A DNA stretch of 9,203 nucleotides, taken from IMG/VR virus record IMGVR_UViG_2548876962_000017; one strand, written 5' to 3'. The position numbers were made by a program, and so were the translations under genes. Shown one piece after another: positions 1-7,500 of the stretch (within the stretch, counting starts at the first letter, position 1; each line of letters begins with the position of its first letter). A model generated the notes under the pieces. That model was not told the origin of the DNA, made no database searches, and worked only from the letters and a program-made list of their open reading frames with translations. The stretch is from a virus. Lineage: Duplodnaviria > Heunggongvirae > Uroviricota > Caudoviricetes.

Positions 1-102
1 TTAATGTTTTTTAATGTTGTATTCCACAATGTGTCCACATTTATTATGCGGCTTTTCCGTATAAAGTAGCTTTTCTATGTCACCTTCACGTGTGAGGGTA
101 CC

Positions 103-146
103 AAAAAGAAAACCCGCAGTATTTACGCTGCGGGTTTTCTTGTTTG
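103..146. terminator. Bidirectional intrinsic terminator hairpin
   Basis: Stem acccgcag (113-120) pairs with ctgcgggt (129-136), extendable by A/T pairs, around an 8-nt loop. A T-run follows on the + strand (137-146) and an A-run precedes it (103-112), which is a U-tract for a - strand transcript. It lies downstream of the hok-like gene on the - strand. Confidence 0.55.
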
Positions 147-192
147 TGTCCATGGGATAGGGTGCCACTTCGGCCAGCCTTAGCAACCGATT

Positions 193-214
193 GACGGGGG
201 ATTGCTCCCCCGTC
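193..214 (-). other. GC-rich stem-loop just 3' of the hok-like stop, possibly the 3' fold of the toxin mRNA
   Basis: gacggggg / cccccgtc inverted repeat around a short loop (attgct). No clear U-tract, so more likely an mRNA-stabilising or fold-back element than a terminator. Confidence 0.3.
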
Positions 215-223
215 GCGGTTTCC

Positions 224-364
224 TTACTGCTTACACTGTAAGAACGCCGCAAACTCCGCTCCCCAGAAGCTCATCCGTATTTCACACAGCGAACCGTGCA
301 GCATCCAGATGATGAGGATTACCGTCACGCAGAACGTGATGGCTATCAGCGATTTTTGCGACAT
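224..364 (-). CDS. hok: Hok/Gef-family type I toxin (small membrane-depolarising peptide), 46 aa
   Basis: Hand translation of the - strand from ATG 364..362 to TAA 226..224 gives MSQKSLIAITFCVTVILIIWMLHGSLCEIRMSFWGAEFAAFLQCKQ. It has one hydrophobic transmembrane stretch followed by the SLCE(I/L)R and AAF(L/M)xC/Y motifs of Hok/Gef/HokA-type toxins. SD AGGAG lies 8 nt upstream (379..375). Too short for the ORF track. Confidence 0.8.
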   Translation of the reverse strand: MSQKSLIAITFCVTVILIIWMLHGSLCEIRMSFWGAEFAAFLQCKQ

Positions 365-581
365 AGCGCTTGCTCCTTTTTCGGAGAGGCGCTAACCTGT
401 CACTTGCTTAGGGTAGACGGTTAGGGCCTCGGTTAAACAGAGATGTTTTCCGGGGCCTTTCCACATCCGGCTTTCGGGTATTCCCTCCGACCATCAGCCG
501 AAAGGCACCCGCGCGTAATTTACCGTTTTCTGAGTTAATTCTCCAAATAAAATTCCAGAGTCAAAAAACAGATACAGGCGA
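365..581 (-). promoter_or_regulatory. Leader region of the hok-like gene; expected location of the hok promoter, any mok-like frame and the antisense Sok-like RNA; may also contain the prophage end
   Basis: About 215 bp non-coding gap between the ogr stop (582) and the hok start (364), with several stem-loops (e.g. 424-456, 470-504). No overlapping mok-like frame with a canonical start was found; both alternative frames hit stops (TGA, TAA) within 45 nt upstream of the hok ATG. Confidence 0.3.
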
Positions 582-839
582 TCACATTACCGGAAACGGC
601 AGTGACAACTGCGCATCACCCCGGTGAGACGCAGGCAGGCTTTGCCACGGAATATCCTGTGAAGTGCTGCCATAACGTTTAACAGTGAGTTTGTCGAAAC
701 TCTCCAGCGTCGAGAAGGAGAGACTGCATTCCGGGTTGTTGCACTGGCAGAGTTTCCAGCGGACAGTTCCGGTATCGTTCGCTGCGCGACTGGTGCGGGT
801 GCGTGTGCTCGCACCACAAAAAGGACACGGAAAAGACAC
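582..839 (-). CDS. ogr: Ogr/Delta-family zinc-finger late transcription activator
   Basis: The translation contains CPFC...ARTSR...CQCNNPEC-S-x-x-F, matching the P2 Ogr pattern CPLC...ARTSR...CQNVNC-S-A-T-F. The preferred start is GTG 839..837 with SD AGGAGG at 853..848 and an 8-nt spacer, giving 85 aa. The ORF-track start ATG 911 has no SD and would overlap the gpD 3' end. Confidence 0.8.
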   Translation of the reverse strand: MSFPCPFCGASTRTRTSRAANDTGTVRWKLCQCNNPECSLSFSTLESFDKLTVKRYGSTSQDIPWQSLPASHRGDAQLSLPFPVM

Positions 840-889
840 GACGAAGACCTCCTTTTTCGTGAAGGTGAATCGTCGTGATTTTATTCTGG

Positions 890-2023
890 TTATTCCTGTT
901 GTGCTATCCATTCAGGAATTTTTAATTCCAGTTCAAGCCGCGTGGTGAAGCCGCTGTCGTCGATGTTGTGCTCCACCTTCGCCAGCACCCAGTCTTCCGC
1001 GTCGATGTCGCTCTTGAAACCGGATACCGTGCCGCGCATTTCGGGGTACAGGTCGGGGCGACCGCGTGCCAGTGTGATGGAGAACTCCGCCGCACCGCGC
1101 TGTAGCTGCTGCCACTTTGCCGCCGCCGCACGGCGTGCGGCCTCCTCGTTTTTGAAGGTTTGGCGCATGACGTACACATTGCCGTCTGCGCCCTCGATGT
1201 AATCCCCCTCGCGGCTGCTGCTTTTCTCCTTTTTTGTTTTTTGGGCAGAACCACGTTTCTTCACGCTGACTTTTTTCTTTTTGCCATAGTCCAGGTCCAG
1301 CCAGTAAGCGCGTACCCCCGTGTACGCCTGCCGGTCTGCAATGCGGAAGTGATGGCTGTCACCGCTGCTGCGGGTGATGGCGAATGAGGGCAGCGGCTTT
1401 CCGCTGGCGCTCACCCCCTGTCCGGGCACGATGAAAAGCAGTGCGCCGTTCTTGACGGTGGCTATGGCTCCCAGCATGTCTGCCATACGCGTGAGAAACG
1501 AGATGTCACTTTCCTCCGTCTGGTCGGCGTGGTCGATTTCCACCCCTGCCAGCGAGGCGCTGATTTGCGCTTTCAGCCCGTAACGGTACGCGATGGCAGA
1601 AACAACCTGCCCCACCGTCACGTCATGCCAGGACACTTCACGCTTCACGTTGAACTCCTGGCGGAAGTCTGCGCTGCTGGCCGTAATGGTGAGTCTGTCC
1701 GGCGGTCCCTCGTGTGTCACCTCGTCAACGATGAACGCTCCCTTGTCCGTCAGCGCCTCACCTTTCCAGCCCAGCGCCAGTCCCAGCTTCTGCCCTCGCT
1801 TCGGGAGACGCACGCCGCCGTCGCTGTCGTCAATCGTGAGGGTTAACTGGTCTGCCTCAAATCCCCGGTTGTCGGTCATTGCCAGCGAGATGACCCGTCG
1901 GGTTAACGCCTCGTTTTCCTCTTTTTTTCCGGTTTCCGCGTTGTCAGTTGTGACGGAAAAATCCGGTATCTTCACGCACTCTGCCAGCCCCGCGAGGTAT
2001 CCGTTAATGCCTGAAAGGTTCAT
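890..2023 (-). CDS. D: P2 gpD-family tail protein (late control gene D, baseplate hub-like)
   Basis: Long - strand ORF with gpD-family motifs (RRVISLAMTDNRGFEADQLTLTIDDSDGG, GWKG, FRIADRQAYTGV, lysine-rich linker, SGFTTRLELE C-terminus), positioned immediately upstream of ogr as in P2. Preferred start is ATG 2023 (M56 of the track ORF) with GGAG 8 nt upstream, giving 377 aa. Alternative starts are 2095 and 2188. Confidence 0.8.
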   Translation of the reverse strand: MNLSGINGYLAGLAECVKIPDFSVTTDNAETGKKEENEALTRRVISLAMTDNRGFEADQLTLTIDDSDGGVRLPKRGQKLGLALGWKGEALTDKGAFIVDEVTHEGPPDRLTITASSADFRQEFNVKREVSWHDVTVGQVVSAIAYRYGLKAQISASLAGVEIDHADQTEESDISFLTRMADMLGAIATVKNGALLFIVPGQGVSASGKPLPSFAITRSSGDSHHFRIADRQAYTGVRAYWLDLDYGKKKKVSVKKRGSAQKTKKEKSSSREGDYIEGADGNVYVMRQTFKNEEAARRAAAAKWQQLQRGAAEFSITLARGRPDLYPEMRGTVSGFKSDIDAEDWVLAKVEHNIDDSGFTTRLELELKIPEWIAQQE

Positions 2024-2186
2024 CCCGCTTTCTCCGTCTGTGTCTTCGTCCTGCAAATCATTCCACACACGCGAAATACACCGCGAGCCGCGCATGTTGT
2101 AGGAGAACGGCGAGAAGGGGCGGCGCGTGAATGTCGGGGTGTTTTTCGGGAGGATAGTGCCACAGAAAAAACACCAGGAGGTGCTC

Positions 2187-3368
2187 ATGAGTGAAACACG
2201 CTTTCACGGTGCACGCGTCAAAGAAAACACCGACCTCGTGACCGCGATTAATGACATTGATTCCAGTGTCATTGGCATCGTGGCCACGGCAGACGATGCA
2301 GACAGCGACGCGTTCCCGTTAAACAAGCCCGTATTGATCACCCGCGTGGCGAATGTGCTGGGTAAGGCAGGCACAACAGGCACGCTGTACAAAACGCTCA
2401 AGGCGATTTCCGACCAGACCAGCCCGAAGGTTATCGTGGTGCGTGTGGCAGAAGCCGGAGAGGAAGGTGAGACACAGGATCAGCTTGTCATCGGTGGCTC
2501 GCAGGCTGACGGCAGCTACACGGGCATGTATGCCCTGCTGGTTGCTGAACAGGACGAGAGCATTGGTTACCGCCCGCGCATTCTGGCGGCTCCCGGTCTG
2601 GATACCGAAGCAGTCACATCCGCCCTGTGCGTCATTGCGGACAAGCTCCGCGCCTTTGTGTACGCCGGATGTAACGGGTGCGACACGATGGCGGAGGCAA
2701 TCACTTACCGTGCGAAGTTCTCCGCGCGTGAGCTGATGCTGCTGTGGCCTGACTTCATTGCCTACAACCCGGTGAGCGGAAATAACGAAACATTTCCGGC
2801 AGCGGCGTATGCGTGCGGGTTGCGTGCGCGGATTGACAGTGAACAGGGCTGGCACAAGTCACTGTCCAACGTGGCGCTGAAAAATGTTCTCGGTATGTCG
2901 CAGCAGGTGTTCTGGTCGTTGCAGGCCGAAGACAGTGATGCGAACAACCTGAACAACAAGGAAATCACCACGATTATTCGCCGTAACGGCTTTCGCTTCT
3001 GGGGGAACCGTACTGCCGAAACCAGCGACTACATCTTTGAGGTGTACACGCGCACAGCGCAGATTCTGGCAGATACCATCGCTGAGGCGCAGTTCGAAAC
3101 CATTGACGAACCGCTGACCCCGGCGAACGTGAAGGACGTGATTAGCGCCATCCGCGCAAAACTCAATGCCCTGGTCACCGCCGGAAAACTCATCGGTGCG
3201 GAGTGCTGGTATGACGTGCTGGACAACGGCACGACGGATTTGCGTCAGGGGCGCGTGCGCATCCGCTACAAGTACACGCCAGTGCCACCGATGGAAGATC
3301 TGACGCTGTATCAGACCTTCACGGATGAGTATTTCGACTCCGCTTTTGCAACGCTGGGAGGTGCGTAA
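2187..3368 (+). CDS. FI: Contractile tail sheath protein (P2 gpFI family)
   Basis: Strong P2 FI-like motifs (FPLNKPVLIT, QYTGMYALLVAE, PRILAAPGLDTEAV, LRAFVYAG, ELMLLWPDF, GLRARIDSEQGWHKSLSNV, IRRNGFRFWGNRT, RYKYTPVPPMEDLTLYQ). Start is ATG 2187 with AGGAGG at 2176-2181, 394 aa. The track start GTG 2127 is an upstream in-frame artefact. Confidence 0.93.
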   Translation: MSETRFHGARVKENTDLVTAINDIDSSVIGIVATADDADSDAFPLNKPVLITRVANVLGKAGTTGTLYKTLKAISDQTSPKVIVVRVAEAGEEGETQDQLVIGGSQADGSYTGMYALLVAEQDESIGYRPRILAAPGLDTEAVTSALCVIADKLRAFVYAGCNGCDTMAEAITYRAKFSARELMLLWPDFIAYNPVSGNNETFPAAAYACGLRARIDSEQGWHKSLSNVALKNVLGMSQQVFWSLQAEDSDANNLNNKEITTIIRRNGFRFWGNRTAETSDYIFEVYTRTAQILADTIAEAQFETIDEPLTPANVKDVISAIRAKLNALVTAGKLIGAECWYDVLDNGTTDLRQGRVRIRYKYTPVPPMEDLTLYQTFTDEYFDSAFATLGGA

Positions 3369-3884
3369 ATGGCTGTACCACGTTACGTTCGCCAGTTCAC
3401 GCTGTTTGTGAACGGCAAAAACAAAATCGGCACGGTGACAGGCGTCACTCTGCCCAAGCTGACCCGAAAAACCGAAGCCTATCGCGGTGGTGGGATGCTG
3501 GGTGCGGTGCATATTGACCTCGGACTGGATGACGGCGCACTGGATGCCTCATTCACCACCGGCGGTGTTGAAAAAGAGTTGCTCCAGGAATACGCCACCG
3601 GCATCAATGAAGTGGCACTGCGCTTTGTGGGTGAGCTGTTCACCGATGGTGAGGAAAGTCAGCTCCTTGAGGTGGAGATGCGCGGACGCATCACGGAAAT
3701 CGACCGTGGCGAAACCAAACAGGGCGACACCACGCAGTACACCTTCGCCGTCAAAAACACCTACTACAAGGAGTCGGTGGATGACAGCGATGTGACAGAA
3801 ATCGACCTGCTGAACTTCATCTACAAAAAAGACGGCCAGAACGTCTTTGGCGACCGCGTGAGTTCGGCGCTCGGTCTGAACTGA
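3369..3884 (+). CDS. FII: Tail tube protein (P2 gpFII family)
   Basis: 171 aa with VTLPKLTRK, YRGGGM, DLGLDDGAL and EVEMRGRITEIDRGETKQG motifs. Its ATG directly follows the FI stop (TAAATG), with GGGAGG upstream. Confidence 0.9.
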   Translation: MAVPRYVRQFTLFVNGKNKIGTVTGVTLPKLTRKTEAYRGGGMLGAVHIDLGLDDGALDASFTTGGVEKELLQEYATGINEVALRFVGELFTDGEESQLLEVEMRGRITEIDRGETKQGDTTQYTFAVKNTYYKESVDDSDVTEIDLLNFIYKKDGQNVFGDRVSSALGLN

Positions 3885-3896
3885 CAGCATTAACAG

Positions 3897-3915
3897 GGCG
3901 GCACATTGTGCCGCC
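3897..3915 (+). promoter_or_regulatory. Intercistronic perfect hairpin between tube and gpE genes (possible attenuator or mRNA-stability element)
   Basis: ggcggcac-att-gtgccgcc: 8-bp perfect GC-rich stem with a 3-nt loop, 13 nt after the FII stop and just before the gpE SD (AGGAG 3918-3922). No U-tract, so not a full terminator. Confidence 0.35.
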
Positions 3916-3930
3916 ACAGGAGAAAGAAAA

Positions 3931-4347
3931 ATGGCAGCAAAGAAAGATGACATCATGAACAGCGAAATCGTCGTAGGTGACACCACCACTGAAAACATCG
4001 ATGTGGCAGAGGAAAACACCGTGGATAACGCTGAAGCCGCAGAGGAAAAAACGGGTGTGAAGTTATCCTGCCCGGTGGTACGTGGCGAACGCGTTATTGA
4101 CTACGTGGAGATTGGCGAGGAAATCCGTCAGGCAGGCTCGTTGCGCGGGCTGTCTCTGATTGAGGTGCTGAACCTCAAAACGGACCCGATGATGACGCTG
4201 CTTTCGCGCGTGACCGCACCACGCCTGAAACTGGCAGAAATTCAGTCACTGTCCACCGGTGATTTCGTGGCGCTGGCGACTATGGCTGCGAATTTTTTTG
4301 CTCCCACGGAGTCTGCGAAACCGCCCGTGGCGGTGATGGAAGCGTAA
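3931..4347 (+). CDS. E: Tail assembly chaperone gpE (zero-frame product)
   Basis: 138-aa ORF between tube and tape measure genes with SD AGGAG 8 nt upstream. It has an acidic N-terminal region, a GSLRGLSL motif, and a T7G slippery run near its 3' end. Confidence 0.75.
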   Translation: MAAKKDDIMNSEIVVGDTTTENIDVAEENTVDNAEAAEEKTGVKLSCPVVRGERVIDYVEIGEEIRQAGSLRGLSLIEVLNLKTDPMMTLLSRVTAPRLKLAEIQSLSTGDFVALATMAANFFAPTESAKPPVAVMEA

Positions 4348-4511
4348 TCACGCTGGCGAAGTTCGACAACGTTGAAGAACTGGTCGCTGATATAGCAGTC
4401 GTGTTTAACTGGTCGCCCGGCGAGATATTCTCAATGCCTCTCGTCGAGGTGATGAGCTGGCGTGAGCGGGCGGCGCAACGTAGCGGAGTCCGCAACAGTG
4501 AAATCCCTTGA
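3931..4511 (+). CDS. E+E': gpE+E' tail assembly chaperone made by programmed -1 frameshift (about 193 aa)
   Basis: After the slip at 4293-4299 the -1 frame is open for 70 codons (CSHGVCETARGGDGSVITLAKFDNVEELVADIAVVFNWSPGEIFSMPLVEVMSWRERAAQRSGVRNSEIP) and stops at 4509-4511, just inside the 5' end of the tape measure gene. This is the geometry expected for P2 E/E+E' and lambda G/GT. Confidence 0.6.
4293..4299 (+). other. Slippery heptamer T_TTT_TTT(G) for -1 ribosomal frameshifting
   Basis: aaTTTTTTTg lies in the E reading frame as AAT TTT TTT GCT (Asn-Phe-Phe-Ala), so an X_XXY_YYZ heptamer is correctly phased for tandem tRNA-Phe slippage. Confidence 0.6.
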
Positions 4512-7500
4512 TATTCGTGTCAGCTTTGGCGCAATTGACCGGCTGACACGCCCGACCGAAAACGCCCGCCGTCAGGTGGGCGCTCTCACTGAATCCCTTC
4601 AGAAGACGCAGAACAACATACAGGCGCTCGACAGACAGTCGAAGGTGTTCGATCGTGCCGCCGGAAATCTCAGTAAATACCGCGAACAGATTGCCCGCGC
4701 GGAGCAGAGGCTCGCCGGGCTGCGAAAGGCAGAGCAGAACGGTAACATCCTCTCCGAAAAGCAGCGTGAAACGCTGGCGGCACTCTCCGCGCGGCTTGAG
4801 CGCCTGAACGAGCTGCGCACGCGCGAGCGCGAAAAACTCCAGGCGGCGGCAGGCGAAATGCGCAAACACGGCATTCTGCTTTCCGGCAGCAGCCGCACCA
4901 TTGAAAGTGCCGTTCGCCGTACACAGCAGTACAACGAGCAGCTCGAGCGCGAACGGCAGGCACTGGCTCGCGTGACGCAGGCACAGAGCCGTTATGAGGC
5001 CGCGAAGGCACAGGCGGAAAAACTGCGCAACACAGGGGCTGTGGCGATGGCGGCGGGTACAGGCGGCCTGTATGCGGCGCAGCGTATGATGGCTCCGGCG
5101 ATGGAGTCCGAACAGCACGGTGCGGTCATCGCAGCCGGTTCGGGGGAAGGCGCACAGGATGGCGCACGTTACACCCACATCATCCGTAACATACAGGCTG
5201 ACGGTCTCGCTGATTTTGCCGGTGCTGCGGAGGCTGTGAGTGCGGTACGCAGTACGCTCGGTGCACTGGGCGACACCGGCGACCGGGAACTGGAGCGCAT
5301 CAGCCGTCGTGCGCTGGATATGCGGACCGTCTTTGGTGTTGATGTGCCGCAGAGCATTCAGGCCGCTGCCATCATGATGAAGAACGGGCTGGCTGCCAGC
5401 AGTGACGAGGCTACTAACCTGATGACGGCAGGCATGCAGCGCATGTCCGCTGAAATGCGCGATGAACTGCCGGAAATTCTGCATGAGTATTCCACCCACT
5501 TCCGCAACATGGGCTTCACCGGCAGCGAGACAATGAGTCTGCTGGTTGAGATGGCAAAGCAGGGCAAGTTTGCGCTGGACAAAACCGGCGATGCCGTGAA
5601 GGAGTTCAGTATCCGTGGTTCGGATATGTCGAAATCCAGTGTCTCAGCGTATGAGACACTCGGCCTGAATGCCGAACGGGTGTCTGCTGCCATTGCACAG
5701 GGGGGCAGCACCGCACGTCAGGCGATGCAGGTGACCGCCCGTGCACTGCTGGCCATCCGTGACCCGGCAGAGCGGGCGAACACGGCTATTGCGCTGTTCG
5801 GCACACCCGTTGAAGACCTCTCCGTTGACCAGATCCCGCAGTTCTTAAAGGCGCTGGCCGATGTCCGTGACAACCTGGGTGATGTCAGCGGCGTGGCAGA
5901 CCGCATGGGGCAGACGCTGCGCGGTAATCTTTCCGGCGATGTTCAGGCGCTGAGTGGTGCGTTCTCAGGGCTACGCACGGACATCTTCGGTACTGTGACC
6001 GAGGATTTGCGCGGGCTGGTTCAGACGGTGAGCGCGTGGGTGACCCGGATGCGCGAATGGGTCGGAGAGCATCATGCGCTGGTCAGAGTCCTGGTGCTGA
6101 CCGGCGGGAGTGTTCTGGCGCTGTCTTCCACGTTCGGTGCGCTGTCACTGACGCTAGGGCTGATTGCGGGACCACTGGCAAAACTGCAACTGGGACTGGG
6201 GCTGCTGACGGGGGGCGGTGGCATTGGTGGTGCTGTCCGGCTTGTGTCTGCGATGGCACTGCGCCTGACGGGGCTGCCTGCGCTGTGGGGGCTGGTCACG
6301 GGGGCGGTGTCGGTACTGGGGGGCGCACTGGGGGCGCTGTTCAGTCCGGTCGGGCTGATTGTTGCCGCCCTGGTGGGCGGCGCGGTTCTGGTGTGGAAAT
6401 ACTGGGATCAGATCAGCGCGTTTTTTTCCGGCTTTTTTGCCGGAGTGTGGGAGGCGCTGCAACCGCTGCGGGAAGCCTTTGCGTCGCTGGCTCCGGTGTT
6501 CGGGCTGATTGGCGATGGCATCAAAGCCGTGTGGGAGTGGTTCACCCGCCTGCTTGAACCTGCAAACGCCTCAAAAGAGACACTCGACAAATGCACCAGC
6601 GCCGGGGAGTCGTTCGGGAAAACGCTGGGGTGGGTCATTCAGAACATTGTGCTGGGGCCGCTGACGATGCTCCTTGATGGCCTCGGCACAGTGCTGAAGT
6701 GGCTGGGTGTTATCCCGGATGGCATCAGGGAAGCGCAGAAGGAGACGCAAAAACTCCAGGAGAGTGCCGCAAAACAGGCCACACAAAAAGCGCCGGTTGC
6801 GTGGGAGTGGGATCCTGCACAGAAAAAAATGGTGCAGAAAACATGGTCGTGGTCATCAGATGCAGCGGAAAACAACGGTGACAATAAACCCGCAATACCT
6901 GCCCCTGCTGTTTCCGGAGAGGTGAAGGGAACGGCGGACAATCCGGTCGGCAAACCCGGTAGTAAATCCCCGCTGGATGAGGCGTGGTTCCGGCAGGGGA
7001 TACAGAAAACCGCCAGCAACACCGGCGGGCTGCTTGAGGAAACTAAAAAACGTACTGGTCCCGGCGATATTGTTTTCAAAAATCTGCCCGGACCCGAAAT
7101 CATTCACGGCGAGTGGAAAGCACCGCAGGTTATCCGGACAGTGCAGGCGGTATCGGCGGGCGGAGGACTGACGGATGCGCTGACAACGCTCTGGCAGAAA
7201 CTCACCGGAAGACAGACTATTTCGCCCGTTCCGGCAGTGAATGTGCCAGCACCGGTGGTGAATGTGGCGCGTCAGGTGTCCGCACTGCCGCAGCCGCGTA
7301 ACGTGACGGAAGGTATGACTGGTGCGGTGATGGCTTCCGCTCCCGTCGCGGAGGCTATCCGGCTCCCGTTGCGACCGGAAGCGGCCAGAAGGGAAGCTAC
7401 GCCACAACCGCAGGCTGCTGCGTTTTCCGGTGAGATACATGTACATCTGCACAACGTCAACACACAGAATCCGCGCGAACTGGCAAAACTGGTTGGTGAG

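Follow-up and report, generated by a model that had tools for sequence, protein, structure and literature searches.

A putative hok/sok-type cassette with no mok frame between ogr and the attachment end of a P2-like prophage

The hok gene and its product

The stretch of DNA analysed in this work, hereafter the window, comprises 9,203 nucleotides of the IMG/VR virus record IMGVR_UViG_2548876962_000017. Its positions 1-6364 are 100% identical to contigs L023 (GCA_042710275.1) and L017, where the genes follow the order tape measure, tube, sheath, gpD, ogr, hok and then ihfA-pheT-pheS. The phage genes flanking hok are ogr, gpD, sheath, tube, tape measure and gpU. Directly upstream of hok, on the - strand, ogr occupies 582..839; its 85-aa product matches Pfam Ogr_Delta with 44.6 bits, and the gene is called in both L017 and L023.

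The hok coding sequence lies on the - strand at 224..364 and consists of 46 codons followed by TAA, as given by the ORF list and by matches in Pfam, PHROG and NCBI. According to the ORF list its product is the 46-aa peptide MSQKSLIAITFCVTVILIIWMLHGSLCEIRMSFWGAEFAAFLQCKQ. A Shine-Dalgarno (SD) sequence, AGGAG, can be read directly at 377-373 on the same strand, 8 nt before the ATG at 364, and its GGAG is kept across 55 unique relatives. An initial annotation of this DNA, made from the letters and an ORF list, had proposed an intact Hok/Gef-type gene of 46 codons with a good SD at this place, and the HMM search bore it out: Pfam HOK_GEF (PF01848), whose cut-off is 22 bits, matched with a score of 31.1 (E 1.8e-7), aligning residues 6-44 to positions 4-42 of the 42-position profile. 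PHROG 251 ('MokW-like host killing', category moron) covered the full length of the peptide (E 1.7e-23). The same annotation noted that the ORF track had missed the gene, which only reflects the default cut-off of 60 aa in the ORF list, since this cut-off hides so short an ORF.

The two motifs put forward as Hok hallmarks, SLCEIR and AAFLQC, are both present in the peptide. In the logo of 1264 Hok peptides the residues C16, T18, L30, C31, E32 and E41 are conserved in more than 80% of the sequences, and all of them are found in the window Hok, as C12, T14, L26, C27, E28 and E37. The peptide also has the general build of the Hok/Gef family, namely a length near 50 aa, one N-terminal hydrophobic helix (the hydrophobic stretch is LIAITFCVTVILIIWML) and the series C…T…LCE…E. 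The 46-codon coding sequence is intact in 59 of the 62 unique loci, and dN/dS against relatives ranges from 0.06 to 0.37. Judged from these sequence comparisons, the ORF is genuine and encodes an intact type I toxin of the Hok/Gef family, on which purifying selection acts.

The gene has earlier records. NCBI lists the exact 46-aa peptide under the title 'Hok/Gef family protein' [Escherichia albertii] / MULTISPECIES Escherichia, with 71 contigs that contain it, and in prophages of E. coli RefSeq has a near-identical gene (WP_000078916.1, WP_000078920.1) annotated at the same place beside ogr. Escalera-Maurer et al. (bioRxiv 10.1101/2025.08.07.668861) group such peptides in the 60%-identity cluster 72; the window peptide differs by one residue from entry 1628 of their catalogue and by two (T7I, A15V) from 72_1621. 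Both 72_1621 and the Stx-phage type 72_1589 stand in their table of arabinose-induced constructs tested, and the only constructs named as non-toxic among the 45 tested are 19_179, 60_1482 and 69_1540 (10.1101/2025.08.07.668861). In the cluster 72 constructs the native leader was replaced: the coding sequence stood behind an arabinose-inducible promoter and a constant SD that is not its own (10.1101/2025.08.07.668861). That study also found hok enriched in prophages (23% of loci vs 5% expected), and it dealt with the coding sequence only, stating that Mok, Sok and the mRNA structure were left out of its analysis (10.1101/2025.08.07.668861). The window hok is therefore already known, with the exact protein annotated and its subfamily catalogued and included in toxicity tests. 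As a gene call our analysis adds little; its value for annotation is that the end of the prophage is placed correctly, with hok inside the prophage.

The hok mRNA and a putative antisense RNA

The noncoding parts of the locus were compared in an alignment of 62 unique relatives, and the pairing statistics given below were calculated over 55 unique sequences. The search for relatives returned 80 loci whose proteins are 96-100% identical, and this high identity limits the power of any covariation analysis.

The initial annotation had proposed a covariance-model search for a Sok-like RNA, and here such a search matched the hok leader: Rfam RF01794 ('sok') aligned over its full model length to 510..351 on the hok strand with 43.4 bits (E 2.8e-7), a score under its gathering score of 59. 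On an R1-type plasmid locus (L106, 182-353) the same model matched the hok-sense strand with 87.2 bits and ended at the hok ATG. It follows that RF01794 models the leader of the hok mRNA, and that the strand of the match is not to be taken as the antitoxin strand.

The predicted 5' end of the hok mRNA is the tac element GGGUGCCUUUCGGCU at 510-496 (- strand), which coincides with the start of the RF01794 match at 510 and is near-invariant in the relatives. Its complement, the fbi element (…CCGAAGUGGCACCC), lies at 175-160 on the same strand. In the fold of the full-length RNA from 510 to 103 (MFE -178.1 kcal/mol, z -7.64), nt 1-15, which correspond to tac, pair with fbi at 175-160, and 94.9% of the tac/fbi cells in the alignment are paired. 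When the RNA is cut at 188 (fold z -5.06) the 5' end pairs instead with a local partner at 476-492 (- strand), in the place of the R1 ucb/anti-SD; in this tac hairpin 98.4% of the cells are paired. The sides that partner tac show G-C/G-U exchanges, including those at positions 489 and 490, and the variation is one-sided. Because the tac/fbi elements are almost invariant, the support for these pairings consists of conservation together with G-C/G-U exchanges and not of compensatory double changes. A closed/open switch of tac, such as that described for the R1 mRNA (PMC9841398), is predicted for the window by these folds. Among the relatives, a chimeric copy (L042) carries a foreign 5' leader, and its tac GGACACC no longer matches fbi GGCACCC.

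Toward the 3' end a stable hairpin at 215-192 (- strand) would be the stop for 3' exonucleolytic trimming. In the alignment 99.8% of its cells are paired and 4 of its 9 pairs show compensatory double changes; the R1 counterpart of this hairpin protects the truncated mRNA (PMC9841398). The hok transcript would end at a strong bidirectional intrinsic terminator at 106-141, which a terminator scan recognised by its 15 pairs and the T-run behind them. Weak Rfam matches at 80-181 on both strands (Thr_leader, MIR8001 and others) were discarded as look-alikes of this terminator hairpin. Homology to the copies in Stx phages stops at 160, directly after fbi. We also set aside an 83-aa ORF at 1..252 (- strand), which has no family match, overlaps the 3' end and 3' UTR of hok, fbi and the terminator, and is probably spurious, although the ENA entry for the identical contig L017 annotates it as a gene (6113-6364).

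The start site of hok is itself predicted to be sequestered. A hairpin at 403-358 (- strand) encloses both the SD and the AUG, with a local folding energy of -22.6 kcal/mol (z -4.75) and 95.9% of its cells paired across the 55 unique sequences.

A consensus promoter scan of positions 1-950 found no sigma-70 site, so the promoters described here are placed by alignment only. The putative hok promoter lies at 517..546 (- strand), with a -10 TAAATT at 522-517 and a -35 TTGGAG at 546-541, separated by an 18-nt spacer; the relatives have TTGCCG-17-TAGATT in the alignment. A recombination breakpoint falls inside this promoter at ~523-546 (near 530), where the -35 TTGCCG of most relatives is replaced in the window and in two relatives (L001 and L035), the -10 and everything downstream being kept. 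Read-through from ogr, which lies just upstream on the same strand, is another possible source of hok transcription.

On the + strand, a putative Sok promoter at 370..398 has a -35 TTGCTC (370-375), a 17-nt spacer and a -10 TAACCT (393-398), and both hexamers are conserved in the relatives. Its assignment follows from equivalence of position: it sits where TTGCGC-17-TATCCT, which we take to be the R1 Sok promoter, lies on the antisense strand of the R1-type locus. The Sok-like RNA that would start from it, of about 55-60 nt, is placed at 404..460 (+ strand) and comprises a 5' tail (404-423), a terminator hairpin (424-457) and a UUU run (458-460); its predicted fold has -23.5 kcal/mol (z -3.09), and its complement is covered by the RF01794 match. 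No part of the cassette varies more than the segment 396-425, complementary to the 5' tail of the putative Sok, which has 1- and 2-nt indels and 70-80% identity vs 90-94% in the adjacent SD region. This pattern fits a divergence of Sok/hok specificity between paralogous copies.

Translation of hok in a leader with no mok frame

Hok production in R1 strictly requires ribosomes to translate mok as far as the hok SD, and mutants of the mok start codon or with premature stops abolish it (PMC9841398). The initial annotation had found no canonical overlapping mok frame, and our reading of the leader agrees: stop codons close all three frames between 410 and 392 on the - strand, and a search of the window for ORFs initiated by ATG, GTG or TTG returned none that reaches the hok SD. 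A GAGG box homologous to that of R1 is present at 430-427, and the R1 mok ATG has no counterpart (GAGGCCCUAACCGUC vs GAGGCAUCCCAUAUG in R1).

Two upstream frames were considered. A 70-codon ORF from the ATG at 494 (-130 relative to hok) was rejected as mok, being open in 15 of the 62 relatives, having no SD and lying inside the tac stem. The second, a uORF of 24 codons at 466-392 (- strand), ends at a UAG (394-392) in the 5' arm of the start-site hairpin. Its ATG at -102 (window 466) is conserved and its end point is not, the ends ranging from -103 to +80 in the 62 relatives, with -30 in 11 of them, and we rejected it as a conserved surrogate of mok. Indels in the leader region of the relatives are not multiples of 3. 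Taken together, the restricted distribution of the 70-codon ORF, the shifting ends of the uORF and the non-triplet indels indicate that no conserved mok exists among the 62 relatives.

The UAG of the uORF pairs with CUA at 366-364, where the A is also that of the hok AUG, so that a ribosome terminating there could unmask the hok start site. We treat this only as a possibility because the end point of the uORF is not conserved. We tentatively suggest that the 46-aa prophage Hok subfamily (cluster 72/PHROG 251) might be a mok-independent variant of hok/sok, in which a hairpin-locked start site is activated with no conserved overlapping leader ORF. The routes may be ribosomes terminating on a short, non-conserved uORF such as 466-392, or direct refolding of the mRNA, and Sok may then act otherwise than by blocking mok translation.

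An alternative to a working cassette, which we regard as unlikely, is that the locus is a regulatory fossil: hok would be intact as an ORF, its native mRNA untranslatable since mok was lost, and the locus without function in the window prophage. The closure of all three frames at 410-392 and the start-site hairpin of -22.6 kcal/mol speak for this explanation, as do the replaced -35 of the hok promoter and the loss of Hok production in R1 mok mutants (PMC9841398). As R1 needs mok, and no ORF crosses the hairpin here, the native locus could be translationally silent. However, 59 of the 62 unique loci have an unbroken coding sequence, and dN/dS is 0.06-0.37, although most of these loci have no ORF reaching the hok SD, and this is not what would be expected of an untranslated sequence; the RNA elements are conserved too.

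Relatives of the 46-aa Hok are encoded at 310 IMG/VR loci in a search with a 6-sequence alignment. This widespread prophage Hok subfamily, present in P2-like and Stx phages, has no counterpart of the mok frame that is mandatory in R1. Should the native cassette prove active, the accepted rule that hok is coupled to mok would not hold throughout the Hok family. The mok-less regulation of the 46-aa subfamily is the sole point of this analysis that may go beyond existing knowledge.

The attachment end of the prophage and the origin of the cassette

The initial annotation had left two readings of the hok locus side by side, prophage cargo or a chromosomal locus at the integration site, and had expected the prophage boundary at 253-581. 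Comparison with the uninfected site decides for the first. The end of ihfA lies 60 nt past window position 1. The region beyond hok was queried against E. coli genomes and gave matches in all 5426; among the matches listed, the prophage-free genomes, K-12 included, show homology only from position 6382 of L023, that is, 18 nt left of the window, and at the empty K-12 site ihfA is joined straight to btuC, with no hok between them. Because the K-12 homology starts ~18 nt left of position 1, the whole window is prophage DNA. By this comparison the host junction is at the ihfA terminator, and attR is not within 253-581 as had been expected.

The phage arm of attR is placed at 1..45, with the motif TTCCACAATGTGTCCACATT at 22-41 and the host junction ~18 nt beyond position 1. 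Another prophage inserted at this site (L018) has the same motif at its att-proximal end, and the motif probably belongs to the phage att arm. Beyond ogr there are thus both the hok cassette and ~120 nt of phage att arm, and the view that ogr is the last gene at the att end does not hold for this prophage.

Copies of the cassette recur in other settings. Positions 92-532 are 92-96% identical to copies adjoining ogr in prophages that occupy four E. coli sites, flk, xylR, tRNA-Leu and ihfA; P88, Xuanwuvirus P884B11 and Citrobacter Shae_phiSM have copies of ~93% identity in their packaged genomes, and copies of 82-83% identity stand beside lom in Stx phages such as 933W. Some plasmids also carry copies. 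The recurrence at several chromosomal sites and in packaged phages identifies the cassette as mobile cargo and not as a chromosomal landmark. On sequence grounds, then, it is cargo of a P2-like (Peduoviridae) prophage, located between the phage genes and the att junction.

The opposite reading, in which a chromosomal hok locus older than the prophage marks the integration site and the boundary lies between hok and ogr, at 253-581, could draw on the several hok loci of E. coli chromosomes and on the failure of the earlier reader to find a boundary. We consider it very improbable: it is refuted by the empty ihfA-btuC site of K-12, which has no hok and whose homology starts ~18 nt left of position 1, and it is also contradicted by hok and ogr standing side by side at four chromosomal sites unrelated to one another and in the genomes of packaged phages. 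Lastly, short hydrophobic ORFs are common, but a chance ORF with superficial Hok-like motifs retains next to no probability and is refuted by the significant family matches, the exact database entry, the conserved flanking RNA architecture and the purifying selection.

Several observations were made on the relatives. In prophages at the same ihfA site (L018-L024) a 500-aa gene with a PIN_4 domain lies between gpD and ogr, and the interval from hok to attR contains a pair formed by com and an N6-methyltransferase gene (coordinate ranges 3804-5306 and 6361-7294 for these insertions); neither is present in the window prophage. These differences in cargo indicate that the ogr-attR end is a variable cargo region. 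In 933W (L005, 45192-46165) the 46-aa cluster 72 hok beside lom is unannotated, and Stx phages carry the 51-aa hokW besides. One locus (L012) has two hok genes in tandem. In a decayed copy (L015, from Stx2_6804) a 1-nt insertion shifts the hok frame, and the copy on the E. albertii plasmid pEA5_1 (L009) has an internal deletion.

Our preferred reading, to which we assign a probability of roughly 0.85, is that window positions 100-546 hold a complete hok/sok-type type I toxin-antitoxin cassette of the 46-aa Hok subfamily (PHROG 251; cluster 72), and that a P2-like (Peduoviridae, P88/Xuanwuvirus-related) prophage, inserted directly downstream from ihfA, carries it as a moron in the interval from ogr to attR. 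The cassette appears complete by the R1 criteria, mok excepted. By homology with R1, a weak promoter or read-through from ogr would give a stable hok mRNA of ~400 nt, from 510 to ~103, held closed by the pairing of 5' tac with 3' fbi. Slow trimming of the 3' end to the hairpin at 215-192 would remove fbi and let tac refold locally onto 476-492, while a short and unstable Sok RNA (+ strand, ~404-460), transcribed from a promoter inside the hok leader, would pair with the leader and lead to decay or repression. Once Sok synthesis ended, Hok would be translated, and with its one hydrophobic helix placed in the inner membrane it would kill or arrest the cell. The sequences themselves show the family membership, an intact gene under purifying selection, RNA elements that are conserved and in part covary, and the location in the prophage, whereas the promoters, the RNA ends, the action of Sok and the biological role are inferred.

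For that role, prophage retention, help in lysis and exclusion of other phages are candidates. R1 hok/sok stabilises its replicon. On a high-copy plasmid it has reportedly lowered the plating of T4 by 42% and made plaques ~85% smaller (cited in PMC8621323).

Comparison with known hok systems

The best NCBIfam match to the window Hok is HokA, encoded on the chromosome of E. coli K-12 (NF007290, 35.4 bits, E 8.3e-9), and the two share an M[PS]QK N-terminus and the C-terminal motif AAFL.C. This score is far under the equivalog cut-off of 89, and for this reason we rejected the window Hok as an orthologue of HokA. Its own subfamily is that of cluster 72, to which 72_1621 and 72_1589 (PHROG 251) belong.

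The likeness to R1 hok/sok extends over most of the cassette. Both systems have a single-helix Hok with the conserved C, T, LCE and E and a leader matched by RF01794, in the window at a score under the gathering score; both have tac and fbi, which can pair, a local tac hairpin and a protective 3' hairpin followed by fbi and the terminator, these folds being predicted ones in the window. The GAGG box is at the equivalent position (430-427 in the window), and so is the putative antisense promoter, TTGCTC-17-TAACCT in the window vs TTGCGC-17-TATCCT in the R1 type. The two also differ: the window Hok has 46 aa vs 52 aa in R1, and the protein is too diverged for a close relative; from the dcb region to the SD, the window leader has 14 nt fewer than that of R1; the R1 mok ATG stands 58 nt upstream of hok, whereas the window has no ATG there and no frame running through to the hok SD; and the cassette of the window is carried by a prophage, that of R1 by a plasmid.

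A prophage-borne type I system of the hok/sok kind is known in hokW-sokW of the Stx2 prophage Sp5 (PMC8621323). Phage records label the 46-aa gene 'MokW-like', but hokW is not its direct homologue: the primers and the length of 51 aa identify HokW (MKQQKAM…, of the HokD-like cluster 35_712) as a different paralogue from the 46-aa type of the window. Upon induction of the Sp5 prophage Sok disappears, Hok appears and phage release is doubled (PMC8621323), and by analogy such an effect on phage release would be a plausible role for a prophage hok like the one described here.
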